Source of the DNA: Candidatus Bathyarchaeota archaeon
Lineage (GTDB): Archaea > Thermoproteota > Bathyarchaeia > TCS64
DNA: 64,000 nucleotides
Direction: 5' to 3'
Assembly: GCA_018396865.1 (NCBI GenBank)
Contig: JAGTRB010000005.1
Span: forward strand, 1-64,000
The notes under the pieces were generated by a model that was given only the letters and a program-made list of their open reading frames with translations, was not told where the DNA came from and did no database searches. Both the position numbers and the translations under genes were made by a program. Below are positions 1-3,756 of this stretch, one piece after another (the first letter of the stretch is position 1; each line of letters begins with the position of its first letter).

Positions 1-322
1 CAGAGGCTCAACATCACAGAAGGCGCCTATAGAGAGGTTGACCGGGCTTGCTCTGACCGCAGTGTACAGGGAACTACGGTTCAGCTGGGGAGATGATCAT
101 AGAACACATGGGGCGGGAAAAGAGGCCATACCATACTCCCAGGCAGGGCAACAATAGATATAGTTATCCCTTGACCAAAAAGGCAAGAATCTAATATAGG
201 TACGAGGTGAAGCTAGGGGAGATTGAAAGTCATAAAGCCAGAAAGGCGGTTGAAACAATTTATGCCTATGGGATGCCGATAGCAAGACCTATAAGCATAG
301 TTTCTAATCCAGTGGAATTACA

Positions 323-407
323 GGATCACATAAGGGACTCAGTCCAGAGGAGCTACTCAACATAAGGATCACATAAGGGACTCGTCCAGAGGAGCTACTC
401 AACATAG
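323..407. repeat. Imperfect tandem duplication of a ~43-bp unit (ggatcacataagggactcagtccagaggagctactcaacataa) in non-coding DNA
   Basis: Two adjacent near-identical copies are visible at 323-365 and 366-407; the second lacks one A. There is no spacer, and no ORF covers the region. Confidence 0.8.
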
Positions 408-882
408 CTGAAAAAAGATGACACATTTTTCCCATAGTCTTACTCCATATACAAGTATGGGATTGAAGGGCTTCTGGTCATGGTCAGGCAGATTGTTGAG
501 GGGCTACTGATGAAGGGTAGGCCTAACCAGAAGAGATCATAGCCATACTTGAGGAGCACTTGAAGTGGATCAGGGAGATGGAAATTACAGGCCCCTCCTT
601 AGCTGACTTAGGTCTACTTGGAGATGGAATTAGAGGATAGAACATCTGAAGGGTTCTAAAGTTTCCTAACCTACTTGAACATCACGGCGGAAGGTGAGGG
701 AATGTTCATCGAGGAGGTGAGGTTTTATCTCGCCACCCCTCGGTCTGGACGATATGATCAAGAAGAGACCGTTAGTAGCTGTCTCTAAGCAATAAAAATC
801 CATAGTTCGATAGTTATTTTAGGGCTTAAAATCATTAAATGCTGGTAAAGTTGGGGTCTGAAGCCCCTTTGGAGAGGATGGG

Positions 883-1419
883 ATGGAGAGGAACGATACC
901 CTTGAGAAGATAAAGGGGGAGAGGGACCTCCTCGAGAGGCTGATGAGCCATATTCCGGGGTATAGAGGTTATAAGGAGAAGGAGCTGAGGAGGGAGAGCG
1001 ATAGGCTTGTGAGGATGGAGGCCGTGCAGAGGCTTAAGGCCTCCAAGGAGATCCTGAGGAGGAGGCTGGCGGATCCCTTTAGTGTCCGGAGGCTCTCGGC
1101 CGAGGATGCATGGAGGCTCGAAACCCTCTCATCTCATCTTGATAGGGTCACCCAGAGGATTGATAGAGCCATAGCTGGATACGCTGGGATATTCGACTCC
1201 GTGAAGGTGAGGGAGGATAAGCTTGAGAGGGTTCTGGAGCATGACCTCAGCCTCATCGAGATGACCGAGAGGGTGAGGGCTGAAATGGAGCGGGCCTCAG
1301 GCCTGGAGCCGGGGAGAGAAGGGTGGAGATCGGCTATAGATGGTCTAATATCAAAGATGGAGGAGCTAGATACCCTTGTGGAGAGGAGGGTTGAGATATT
1401 CAAGGGATTAGAGGCATGA
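883..1419 (+). CDS. Hypothetical charged coiled-coil protein (178 aa)
   Basis: Clean ORF with host-like codon usage. Heptad-like charged, helical sequence (ELRRESDRLVRMEAVQRLKASKEILRRR...). It is first in a same-strand trio with the SPFH and Spo0M-like genes. Confidence 0.6.
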   Translation: MERNDTLEKIKGERDLLERLMSHIPGYRGYKEKELRRESDRLVRMEAVQRLKASKEILRRRLADPFSVRRLSAEDAWRLETLSSHLDRVTQRIDRAIAGYAGIFDSVKVREDKLERVLEHDLSLIEMTERVRAEMERASGLEPGREGWRSAIDGLISKMEELDTLVERRVEIFKGLEA

Positions 1420-1486
1420 ACCCTTCAAAGGATAATGCTACTAAAATAGCGGAGATGCGGAGTTAAGAATGGAGAGGTGAAGATGG

Positions 1487-2524
1487 ATGCCTAAGGTTAT
1501 CGAGTGGAGGGATGCGAGGGAGGGGGAGCTGGTCTGGAGATATCCAGTCGATGAGATAGCCTGGGGGGACAACCTGATCGTTCACGAGTATGAGGCGGCG
1601 GTCTTCTTCAGGGATGGGAAGGCCTACGACGTCTTCAGGGCTGGAAGGCATGTCCTGACCACCGCTAACCTACCACTTATCACCAAGGTTCTATCCACCA
1701 TAGCGGGATTTGACAGGATCCCCTTCAGGGCCTCCATAGTATTCATCTCCCTCAAGCAGTTCTTGGGCAGGTTCGGAGCTCAGGGGCAGACCAAGGAGCT
1801 CGCCCCCCTGAAGTTCTATGGTAGCTTCTGGTTTAGGGTTGAAGACCCAAACCTCTTCGTGAATGAGGTTGTTGGAGGCCAGAGCTTATACACGACGGAA
1901 GGCCTCCAGAGCTTCCTGAGGGGTTACTTCAACGAGAGGCTTATAGACACCCTGAGCCAGTACTCCCTGGCTGAGGTGTATGGGAAGCTCGATGAGACGA
2001 GCCTCCTGACAAAAGGGTTCCTATATGAGGCCCTTTCAAGGATCGGCCTGGAGCTGATAGACCTGAAGTTCGAGGGGATAGACACAACCCCGGAGTGGAG
2101 GGACAGGATATTCTATTTGAGCACCGGTATAGGAGCCACGGAGGTCCTGAGGATGGAGACTGTCCAGAGGGCGGCCGAGAGCCTATCCAAGAGCCCAGGG
2201 GCAGCCGTAGGGGCTGGGATAGCCGTCATCCCACCTCTATTCCAGCAGCCTCCACAGGCCCAACCGATGATTCAATGCCCTAGATGCGGATTCCAGAACC
2301 CCGGATCCTCAAGGTTCTGCGGGAACTGCGGAGGCCAGCTCCAACCTGTGGCGGGAGGGGTTACCTGCACGAACTGCGGACACCTCAACCCACAGGGAGC
2401 GAGGTTCTGCATGGAGTGTGGGAGACCCCTAACCCAGACCCTCAAATGCCCGAGCTGTGGATCCGATGTCCAACGGGGGGCCAAGTTCTGCCCGAACTGT
2501 GGAGCCAAACTATCCCAGAACTAG
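1487..2524 (+). CDS. SPFH/Band 7_1-family protein (PF13421-like) with a C-terminal triple zinc ribbon
   Basis: The N-terminus VIEWRDAREGELVWRYPVDEIAWGDNLIVHEYEAAVFFRDGKAYDVFRAGRHVLTTANLPLITKVL matches the Band_7_1 consensus as I recall it. The C-terminus carries three CxxC-N-(R/K)FCxxCG units: CPRCGFQNPGSSRFCGNCG, CTNCGHLNPQGARFCMECG, CPSCGSDVQRGAKFCPNCG. Confidence 0.8.
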   Translation: MPKVIEWRDAREGELVWRYPVDEIAWGDNLIVHEYEAAVFFRDGKAYDVFRAGRHVLTTANLPLITKVLSTIAGFDRIPFRASIVFISLKQFLGRFGAQGQTKELAPLKFYGSFWFRVEDPNLFVNEVVGGQSLYTTEGLQSFLRGYFNERLIDTLSQYSLAEVYGKLDETSLLTKGFLYEALSRIGLELIDLKFEGIDTTPEWRDRIFYLSTGIGATEVLRMETVQRAAESLSKSPGAAVGAGIAVIPPLFQQPPQAQPMIQCPRCGFQNPGSSRFCGNCGGQLQPVAGGVTCTNCGHLNPQGARFCMECGRPLTQTLKCPSCGSDVQRGAKFCPNCGAKLSQN

Positions 2525-2597
2525 CTTCCTTCACTCCAATTTGAAGATTGGAGTGTGGGTCAACCTTAAATTAGCCTCGATATGAATCTCAAACTAG

Positions 2598-3215
2598 GTC
2601 TCGGGGGGAGGTTGGATATCCTTTCTTAGGAAGCTCAAGGATAAGTTCACCCCTCCAAAGGCCTCCGTCACCATAAGCCTGAAGAGAGAGAGCTTCAACC
2701 TGGGTGAGAACATCGAGGGCGTATTGAATATATCCTCGGAGGAGGATTTCGAGGCCACTGATATAAGATGCGAGATCAGCTGCGTGGAGTCGGCCAAGAA
2801 GACTAAGAGGGAGTACGACAAGGAGAAGGGGAGGGAGGTGGAGAGGGAGGTCTGGGAGTCTGTGACCCTATACTCGGCAAAGCCAACATTAAGAGGCGCG
2901 ACCAAGATTTATAGGGGATACAGGGAGGAGATCCCCTTCAGCATAGGCCTACCCCCAACGGGCAGGCCGACATACAAGAGCATAAATAACAACGTGGTCT
3001 GGAGCATAAAGGGGGTCATAGGGGTTGATGGGAGGCCCGACGTCGTAAGCAGAACCATCGAGATCCAGGTGGCCCAGCCAAGCCCAACGCCCGTTGTGAA
3101 GGAGGTCATAATAAAGGAGAAGGAGGTCGTCATGATACCATGCAAGTACTGTGGAACCCTCATGCCCCAGACAGAGACCGTCTGCCCCCACTGCGGGGCG
3201 AGAAGAACCGGATAA
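2598..3215 (+). CDS. Spo0M-like (arrestin-fold) protein with C-terminal zinc ribbon; the N-terminal start is unresolved
   Basis: From the stop at 2595 the frame reads VSGGGWISFLRKLKDKFTPPKASVTISLKRESFNLGENIEGVLNISSEEDFEATDIRCEI..., which is Spo0M-like. No ATG, GTG or TTG occurs before the TTG at 2724. An ATG at 2582 lies in the adjacent frame, separated from this frame by the G6 run at 2603-2608. The protein ends with CKYCG...CPHCG. Confidence 0.6.
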   Translation, partial: VSGGGWISFLRKLKDKFTPPKASVTISLKRESFNLGENIEGVLNISSEEDFEATDIRCEISCVESAKKTKREYDKEKGREVEREVWESVTLYSAKPTLRGATKIYRGYREEIPFSIGLPPTGRPTYKSINNNVVWSIKGVIGVDGRPDVVSRTIEIQVAQPSPTPVVKEVIIKEKEVVMIPCKYCGTLMPQTETVCPHCGARRTG

Positions 3216-3483
3216 AGCTCCACCGAGAACCACCGAAATTTGGAATAGGAGGCTTTTGAGAGGACGCCGCACTAAATCAATAGTTTTAATCCCACATCTC
3301 ATTTATAATTTATTTCTTAATTTTTATCACAATTAATTTCCAAATCTTTTCAGTTTTAATATATAGTGCCAGGGATTAGCACATGGCTTCAGGTGCCCAT
3401 CGGTACACTCGATGAATCCCCCTGAAGGATCCATCTCGATGAAGGGTTTTCAATTCAAACTGGCGAAATTCAAACCAGCGGGT

Positions 3484-3756
3484 TCACTGAGGCTTGATGC
3501 TCGGCTCTCCCGGCTTGGCCTTAAGCTCCGGAGGTATCTTCACGACCCTGACGATGTTCTGGGAGTTTATGAGGTATATCGGAGTCCCATCAGGGTTATA
3601 CTTCTTCAGCCTCTTCACGCCTATCAATACCAGCTTCACCTTCAGGAGGGAGCCATCCTCGAGCTGGTAGATGTTCCAGTGCTCCTCAACCTCCCTGAAG
3701 TCCAGGTCGACCCCCGAGGATATATCCTCGGGGGTCAAGGGGATCTGCACGGCCAT
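3484..3756 (-). CDS. Hypothetical small protein (90 aa)
   Basis: Its composition is more protein-like than the overlapping plus-strand ORF 3412-3774. I recognise no motif. Confidence 0.4.
   Translation of the reverse strand: MAVQIPLTPEDISSGVDLDFREVEEHWNIYQLEDGSLLKVKLVLIGVKRLKKYNPDGTPIYLINSQNIVRVVKIPPELKAKPGEPSIKPQ

Follow-up and report, generated by a model that had tools for sequence, protein, structure and literature searches.

A three-gene cluster near the start of a 64-kb stretch of DNA from Candidatus Bathyarchaeota archaeon (contig JAGTRB010000005.1, positions 1 to 64,000; hereafter the window) encodes a helical-bundle protein (ORF1), a soluble SPFH protein of the YdjI type with three C-terminal zinc ribbons (ORF2) and an arrestin-like protein with one zinc ribbon (ORF3). 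Judged from gene order in related loci, the conserved unit of this cluster is the pair formed by the ORF1-family gene and the SPFH-zinc-ribbon gene. An earlier note on this DNA had missed that this pair is the core, that it is usually preceded by a gene for a small membrane protein and that the arrestin-like gene is one of several interchangeable zinc-ribbon accessories. By analogy with the PspA-YdjGHI system of Bacillus subtilis, we somewhat favour the view that the cluster represents a lineage-specific form of a widespread module, which would combine the ORF1-SPFH pair with swappable zinc-ribbon accessories into a sub-membrane scaffold.

SPFH proteins act as organisers of membrane microdomains in archaea, bacteria and eukaryotes. 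For the soluble YdjI-type subgroup, understanding is limited, to our knowledge, to Bacillus, in which it cooperates with PspA. The loci described here point to a far more widespread partner than PspA, namely a family of helical-bundle proteins of about 175 amino acids (aa), present in archaea and bacteria and encoded almost always directly 5' of an SPFH-zinc-ribbon gene. They provide a system of two to four proteins in which to study the membrane targeting of soluble SPFH scaffolds and what these assemble. In TACK-group archaea, the loci also place a minimal arrestin-fold protein in the setting of a membrane scaffold, which is relevant to how arrestin/Vps26-type adaptors arose. The functions proposed below are suggested by genomic context and predicted folds, and the arrestin link is suggestive.

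Conservation of the ORF1-SPFH pair and its accessory genes

The cluster was compared with 80 loci around ORF1 homologues and further loci from protein look-ups (genome survey; ORFs labelled by phmmer), and with 80 metagenome loci picked by similarity to one distant ORF1-family member (30–44% identity). Every archaeal locus with at least 2.6 kb of downstream sequence (67/67) carried an SPFH-zinc-ribbon gene 3' of the ORF1 homologue on the same strand; the two genes adjoined directly in 51 loci, and a gene for a zinc-ribbon protein of about 415 aa lay between them in 16. Wherever an SPFH gene was present, it was separated from the ORF1 gene by a median gap of 28 nt. Among the distant metagenome loci with at least 500 nt downstream, 61 of 62 contained the SPFH gene, which was directly adjacent in 55. 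A gene encoding Band_7_1 and DZR domains also directly followed an ORF1-family gene (25–35% identity) in an Anaerolineae genome, at a locus whose Amidase_3 and LysM neighbours suggest a bacterium, and at one locus where the ORF1-family protein resembles those named from Methanomassiliicoccales. Gene order in these loci shows that the ORF1-SPFH linkage is tight and ancient.

Immediately 5' of the pair, 72 of 78 loci contain the gene of TM112, a protein of about 112 aa in which several stretches are hydrophobic; this gene usually overlaps the start of ORF1, and the protein matches no Pfam family. TM112 is missing from the window and its closest relatives (L005 and L090–L092), and a tblastn search of the window found no trace of it or of the 415-aa zinc-ribbon protein. 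L005, a 75%-identical relative, is syntenic with the window for all three genes. The co-localisation on which the earlier note had built was thus found again, as the trio in L005 and as pair or trio in many lineages; by this synteny, the clustering of the three genes is not due to chance.

Four kinds of addition to the pair were found, each with a zinc ribbon: YdjG-like proteins, proteins combining a zinc ribbon, a transmembrane segment and a Toastrack domain, arrestin-zinc-ribbon proteins, and fusions of the ORF1 domain. The YdjG-like proteins, of about 250 and 415 aa, are mutual paralogues; each has a ribbon, and the C-terminal part shows weak similarity to PepSY/YpeB. Roughly every second Bathyarchaeia locus and many metagenome loci carry their genes beside the pair (for example, 415 aa at L001 6537–7784 and 250 aa at L009 4847–5599). 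A gene for a zinc ribbon, a Pro-rich linker, a transmembrane segment and Toastrack (DUF4097) is inserted between the ORF1-family and SPFH-zinc-ribbon genes in L124 (4553–5755), L143 (4144–5283), L152, L168, L169 and L176, loci from soil-type metagenomes that are probably bacterial. Through this insertion, the pair is connected with Toastrack, a domain characteristic of phage shock protein (PSP) and Lia envelope-stress systems. As Toastrack, DUF4178, band-7 plus zinc ribbon and zinc ribbon plus YpeB-like domains are listed as partners of PSP systems (PMC11237479), the occurrence of Toastrack, DUF4178 and the YdjG-like architecture here indicates an accessory pool common with these systems.

The arrestin-like gene and the zinc-ribbon/PepSY-like genes never occurred together in the 64 loci with full context (13 versus 33 loci; Fisher p = 1.6e-5, shared ancestry ignored), and all 5 full-context loci without TM112 had the arrestin-like gene (p = 1.7e-4, again with shared ancestry ignored). 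It was located downstream on the same strand in the window and L005, downstream and convergent in L002, L035, L037, L051, L070, L072, L074, L075, L081, L086 and L178, and upstream on the same strand in L093 (Methanomethylicia). The arrestin-adjacent loci span genomes labelled Bathyarchaeia, Nezhaarchaeota, Methanomethylicia and Nitrososphaerota. On the evidence of gene neighbourhood, the link between the arrestin-like gene and the pair is real but facultative.

Domain composition and predicted folds

ORF2 matched the Pfam family Band_7_1 (PF13421; E = 1.3e-24, 87.5 bits, cutoff 24) over profile positions 1–198 of 211, and PF01145 with E = 2e-17. The low-complexity linker between this domain and the C-terminal ribbons is rich in Gly, Ala and Pro (SPGAAVGAGIAVIPPLFQQPPQAQP). 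Exactly three ribbons of the form CxxC-x10-CxxC are present, which together scored 74.7 bits against Zn_Ribbon_1 over three stretches; three ribbons were likewise found in 68 of 77 SPFH homologues from the archaeal loci, and the number in SPFH proteins of the module ranges from one to three. None of the three proteins has a transmembrane segment; for ORF2, the maximum 19-residue Kyte–Doolittle mean (KD19) was 1.22. The earlier note had reported three same-strand genes at this site, a YdjI-type Band_7_1 protein encoded by the second, and CxxC...CxxC ribbons at the ends of ORF2 (in three copies) and ORF3. The ORF calls placed all three genes on the plus strand, Pfam, KD19 and regular expressions agreed on a soluble domain, a low-complexity linker and C-terminal ribbons in ORF2, and both tails are predicted zinc ribbons by regular expression and Pfam, with two CxxC pairs about 10 residues apart.

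ORF1 contains 37 Lys and Arg and 37 Asp and Glu residues and no hydrophobic segment. The AlphaFold2 model (predicted local distance difference test, pLDDT, 81.6; predicted template modelling score, pTM, 0.79) shows five main helices of about 22–31 residues each that form a compact bundle; it does not predict a single long coiled coil. Size and charge agree with those of the 178-aa charged coiled-coil protein in the earlier note. Pfam assigned no family to ORF1. The NCBIfam entry NF047596 (LIMLP_15305 family) was matched with E = 7e-17 in an end-to-end alignment (5–173 of 178 against 6–173 of 175), and the score of 61.8 bits lies far under the curated equivalog cutoff of 210; by this alignment, ORF1 is a distant homologue of the family and not an equivalog. 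The Leptospira proteins of this family share the length and helical character of ORF1. The family is named only, without an assigned function, and in the one paper found on LIMLP_15305 the locus tag appears solely as the flank of a small RNA.

An exhaustive profile search placed 1,218 clusters at 50% identity in the ORF1 family, almost all of them with 165–185 aa. Identity is about 60% across Bathyarchaeia, with a mean column identity of 80%, and the invariant residues are found in two loop motifs, PGYxGYxExExRRxxDxxxR (aa 25–44) and GYAGxFDxxKVxE (aa 99–111). The most conserved motif (aa 99–107) is the sole low-confidence loop of the model, which would fit a segment that becomes ordered upon partner binding. 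Members fused to a C-terminal DUF4178 domain (P0237, P0248) or an N-terminal zinc ribbon (P0217) were observed in the representative library.

A PspA- or ESCRT-III-like nature of ORF1, which the earlier note had considered and for which it had proposed profile searches, found no support in such searches. PF04012 (PspA_IM30) and PF03357 (Snf7) were absent at E ≤ 1 from the full Pfam table of ORF1; with 22 diverse family members, both were absent from the 25 most-matched of 77 sporadically matched Pfam families (E ≤ 1). The family profile, searched against all PDB sequences at E ≤ 10, gave two irrelevant matches and nothing else; alignment to E. coli PspA with hhalign returned a probability of 0.2%, and a Foldseek search with the ORF1 model gave no match under E = 0.1. 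The best structural superposition was with IncA (TM-score 0.56 query-normalised, 0.60 target-normalised), and no ESCRT-III, PspA or Vipp1 chain was among the matches listed in the structure and sequence searches. The predicted fold lacks the long α1–α2 hairpin of PspA and ESCRT-III, and the N-terminal helix is not amphipathic. E. coli PspA found nothing below E = 1 in the 64-kb window by tblastn. Overall, ORF1 is not detectably PspA/ESCRT-III-like and homology is not supported by sequence or predicted fold, although the model, being that of a monomer, leaves other polymer states possible. A tempting interpretation of ORF1 is thereby corrected.

The predicted fold of ORF3 is of the arrestin type, with a single β-sandwich (aa 16–153) followed by a linker and the zinc ribbon, and it lacks the second lobe of the two-lobe arrestin architecture. 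With the N-terminus restored, ORF3 scored 24.9 bits against Arrestin_N (cutoff 24.9) and 15.2 bits against Spo0M (cutoff 23); many homologues have a precomputed match to PF00339. The ribbon reached 21.8 bits against Zn_Ribbon_1 (cutoff 25), and its four Cys residues are invariant in 25 homologues. The predicted fold and ribbon bear out the earlier description of a Spo0M-like protein with a zinc ribbon. The conserved N-terminal helix (SFLRKLKDKF) is strongly amphipathic, with a hydrophobic moment of 0.68. In comparison with Spo0M, the N-lobe of the α-arrestins ARRDC3 and TXNIP, and Vps26, ORF3 has one lobe (about 140 aa) instead of two, its sequence identity is 15–19%, and the C-terminal ribbon and the amphipathic helix are additions without counterpart in these proteins. 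Spo0M of B. subtilis is σW-regulated and degraded by FtsH, its null mutant is membrane-defective, and a pull-down recovered the SPFH protein FloA (PMC5325327). A CxxxC pair (RCEIxC; aa 52 and 56, window about 2769–2783) lies inside the sandwich of ORF3; C56 is invariant and C52 nearly so in the 25 homologues, and the two residues may form a disulfide or a metal site.

Overlooked in the earlier note was the absence of a canonical start codon from ORF3. Its homologues begin with M(S/A)F(L/F)(K/R)K..., the window reads ATA TCC TTT CTT from 2616, and L005 has ATG where the window has ATA (2616–2618). No in-frame ATG, GTG or TTG occurs from the upstream stop (2595) to the TTG at 2724. The ATA is common to four assemblies of the population, namely the window, one NCBI metagenome-assembled genome and two independent Logan assemblies; a sequencing or assembly error is unlikely because the three other assemblies share it. 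An ATG at 2582 is out of frame and terminates at 2627; it is located about 9 nt past a TATA-like box and thus probably upstream of the transcript start. Rescue of ORF3 from this ATG by a frameshift was rejected, since the homologues begin at the ATA position. Public annotations (P0389, P0390; 163 aa, 99% identity) use the TTG, which would drop the N-terminal helix and the first strands and probably yield a non-functional product. Either ORF3 is translated inefficiently from ATA, or it is translated from TTG. Since the first 36 codons after ATA are intact and differ from L005 about as much as the remaining codons do, any inactivation would be recent; ORF3 may be weakly expressed or newly inactivated in this population. 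Between the window and L005, the core CTTAAATT (TTAAATTA in the window) is kept amid diverged intergenic DNA, about 45 nt 5' of the homologous ORF3 start. Together with the GGAGGT motif just 5' of ATA, this box indicates that ORF3 probably has its own promoter and a ribosome-binding site aimed at 2616.

Possible scaffold function and alternative explanations

In B. subtilis, the SPFH protein YdjI is soluble, lacks a hydrophobic anchor and ends in a zinc finger. The membrane proteins YdjG and YdjH recruit it to the membrane; it also binds PspA, whose foci require it (PMC8581546). The YdjGHI system also senses membrane stress independently of PspA (bioRxiv 10.64898/2026.02.06.704340), and YdjG has been described as containing two zinc ribbons and a YpeB-related domain (PMC11237479). 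The cluster resembles this PspA-YdjGHI (SamGHI) system in that the architecture of ORF2 is that of YdjI, according to the published description, and a helical gene adjoins it; relatives of the cluster add a small membrane protein and zinc-ribbon/PepSY-like proteins resembling YdjG. It differs in several respects. The helical partner is not PspA, either by sequence or by predicted fold, ORF2 has three ribbons instead of one, and the Bacillus operon encodes nothing that corresponds to the arrestin-like accessory. YdjH, with its TPM domain, is without counterpart in the module, where the membrane partner is the unrelated protein of about 112 aa; the window cluster has no TPM/YdjH-like gene, and YdjG-like zinc-ribbon/PepSY-like proteins are found only in its relatives.

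Archaeal proteins that combine SPFH, coiled-coil and zinc-ribbon parts were previously described in the ESCRT-like 'Meth_adaptin' loci of methanogens (Makarova et al. 2024, PMC10936438). As in the cluster described here, archaeal SPFH proteins with zinc ribbons are linked there by context to membrane-trafficking-type domains; the Vps4, ESCRT-III and adaptin-appendage genes of those loci were not seen in the window cluster or in the related loci examined. Prior work already covers zinc-ribbon SPFH proteins of the YdjI type and their connection with PSP systems, as well as archaeal SPFH-zinc-ribbon proteins in ESCRT-like loci. Open-access literature yielded no description of the ORF1 family as a general SPFH-zinc-ribbon partner or of an arrestin-zinc-ribbon accessory, in agreement with the earlier statement that an archaeal pairing of SPFH and Spo0M-arrestin proteins, both tagged with ribbons, is uncharacterised.

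The data show which domains the proteins contain, how they are predicted to fold and that their genes are linked; from this we infer a membrane localisation, mutual contacts and a role in stress for the proteins of the module. The SPFH protein would oligomerise beneath the membrane as a scaffold, with TM112 as the usual membrane anchor that brings it there. Where TM112 is absent, as in the window, the amphipathic helix conserved at the N-terminus of the arrestin-like protein could tether the complex. ORF1 would be the obligate SPFH partner and occupy the genomic and functional place of PspA without homology to it; as a functional analogy, this comparison is plausible. A shared docking handle might be provided by the zinc ribbons that the SPFH protein and all accessories carry, and the arrestin-like protein might act as an adaptor which delivers a client to the scaffold or helps to anchor it.

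Several observations weigh against this proposal. The idea of a docking handle derives from co-occurrence. ORF1 has no detectable similarity to PspA, its compact bundle is unlike the polymerising ESCRT-III hairpin, and its N-terminal helix is not amphipathic (hydrophobic moment 0.23; mean hydrophobicity -0.62); its role may be quite unlike that of PspA, for example that of a regulator or adaptor. The arrestin-like gene is absent from most loci, being found in 13 of the 64, and in arrestin-centred look-ups it adjoined the pair in 3 of 5 cases and stood alone in 2 (Nitrososphaerota and a JGI contig). The p-values for mutual exclusion do not account for shared ancestry. Finally, ORF3 is without a canonical start and TM112 is missing in the window, which raises the possibility that the module has partly degenerated here.

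Some of these points would also fit an explanation in which only the ORF1-SPFH pair is a functional unit and ORF3 is a functionally unrelated neighbour by descent that is decaying here. The low frequency of the arrestin-like gene, its solitary occurrence in Nitrososphaerota and the JGI contig, its probable own promoter and variable orientation, and the change from ATG to ATA in this population all agree with such a neighbour. Inheritance of one arrangement, however, can hardly explain why adjacency is kept across three arrangements and four labelled lineages, and a decaying bystander would not be expected to show strict exclusivity with the other zinc-ribbon accessories, enrichment where TM112 is missing, the same kind of zinc-ribbon tail, and 36 codons after ATA that are intact and conserved like the rest of the gene. 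We regard this explanation as unlikely, though one to be taken seriously. A bolder version of the scaffold proposal appears similarly doubtful to us: the ORF1 family might constitute a PspA-independent SPFH hub, and this hub or the SPFH ring might recognise zinc-ribbon tags so that any zinc-ribbon accessory plugs in, with the arrestin-like protein acting as a prokaryotic adaptor for membrane or cargo at an SPFH microdomain. If true, the one-lobe arrestin and the SPFH protein would be a simple forerunner of the eukaryotic partnership between arrestin/Vps26-type adaptors and scaffolds.

Two further explanations were weighed. ORF1 could be a very divergent member of the PspA/IM30/ESCRT-III proteins and the cluster a true archaeal PSP system, as ORF1 is all-helical, roughly of the size of PspA and encoded beside a YdjI-type SPFH gene like pspA of B. 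subtilis, and its family uses accessory domains tied to PSP systems. At the sensitivity available, the Pfam, PDB-profile, hhalign and Foldseek results largely refute this idea, which we consider hardly credible. A role of the module in anti-virus defence or abortive infection, or its origin from viruses, is likewise very improbable. Band_7_1 proteins at times carry a virion-core-like annotation, and defence- or mobility-related genes occur near some modules, namely PIN/MazE and HEPN/nucleotidyltransferase pairs 5' in L005, AIPR and DUF4011/DUF3320 genes near L089, and an integrase and Prim-Pol near L178. Six module proteins, however, gave no PADLOC match at E ≤ 0.01, PHROG matches were confined to the zinc-ribbon segments, and the surroundings are stable and of housekeeping type (tRNA synthetases, PolX, M20 peptidase) with conserved synteny. 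The identity of ORF1 of about 60% across Bathyarchaeia would also be unusual for fast-evolving defence genes. The scaffold proposal remains our preferred interpretation of the cluster.

Feature coordinates and flanking regions

Table 1. Features of the three-gene cluster and its start region (coordinates are positions in the window).
Feature	Position (nt)	Strand	Description	Basis
ORF1	883..1419	+	178 aa soluble helical-bundle protein, homologue of the LIMLP_15305 family	ORF call, NCBIfam, AlphaFold2
ORF2	1487..2524	+	345 aa YdjI-type soluble SPFH protein	ORF call, Pfam
ORF2 Band_7_1 domain	about 1532-2095	+	aa 16-203; Gly/Ala/Pro-rich linker next, then three zinc ribbons	
ORF2 zinc ribbon 1	2276..2329	+	CPRCGFQNPGSSRFCGNC	regular expression, Pfam Zn_Ribbon_1/DZR
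ORF2 zinc ribbon 2	2366..2419	+	CTNCGHLNPQGARFCMEC	regular expression, Pfam Zn_Ribbon_1/DZR
ORF2 zinc ribbon 3	2447..2500	+	CPSCGSDVQRGAKFCPNC	regular expression, Pfam Zn_Ribbon_1/DZR
Candidate archaeal TATA-like box	2566..2573	+	TTAAATTA; possible separate ORF3 transcript	conservation relative to L005, inference
GGAGGT motif	2607-2612	+	just 5' of the ORF3 ATA	
ORF3	2616..3215	+	199 codons; amphipathic N-terminal helix, predicted arrestin-N/Spo0M fold, C-terminal zinc ribbon; start codon ATA	
ORF3, alternative reading from TTG	2724..3215	+	163 aa; first canonical in-frame start	used by public annotations
ORF3 zinc ribbon	3141..3194	+	CKYCGTLMPQTETVCPHC; four Cys invariant in 25 homologues	regular expression

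Top database matches and near-identical assemblies assign the window to an uncultured member of Bathyarchaeia; it is 99.9% identical to contig JAWCKD010000002.1 of assembly GCA_038852475.1. About 0.9–1.1 kb 5' of ORF1 (window 1–882, corresponding to L090 about 1322–2160) is without a convincing ORF; L005 has the PIN/MazE and HEPN/nucleotidyltransferase pairs at this place. No RNA element was found by Rfam at E ≤ 1 in window 1–3500, and a promoter and terminator scan of bacterial type, which is ill-suited to archaea, gave only background level. The ORF-poor region contains a tandem duplication of 42–43 nt at 322–364 and 365–406, AGGATCACATAAGGGACTC(A)GTCCAGAGGAGCTACTCAACATA. The repeat is single-copy in the near-identical assemblies L090, L091 and L006, and the duplication may be either genuinely polymorphic or an artefact of assembly.

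On the other side of the cluster, a 90-aa ORF without a Pfam family is located on the minus strand at 3484–3756, between ORF3 and the M20 peptidase gene, and occupies the same position in L005 and L090. Further along the window, the G+C content falls to 0.41–0.44 at 12–14 kb, 18–22 kb and 38–40 kb, compared with about 0.53 elsewhere; these stretches could represent RNA genes or foreign DNA.

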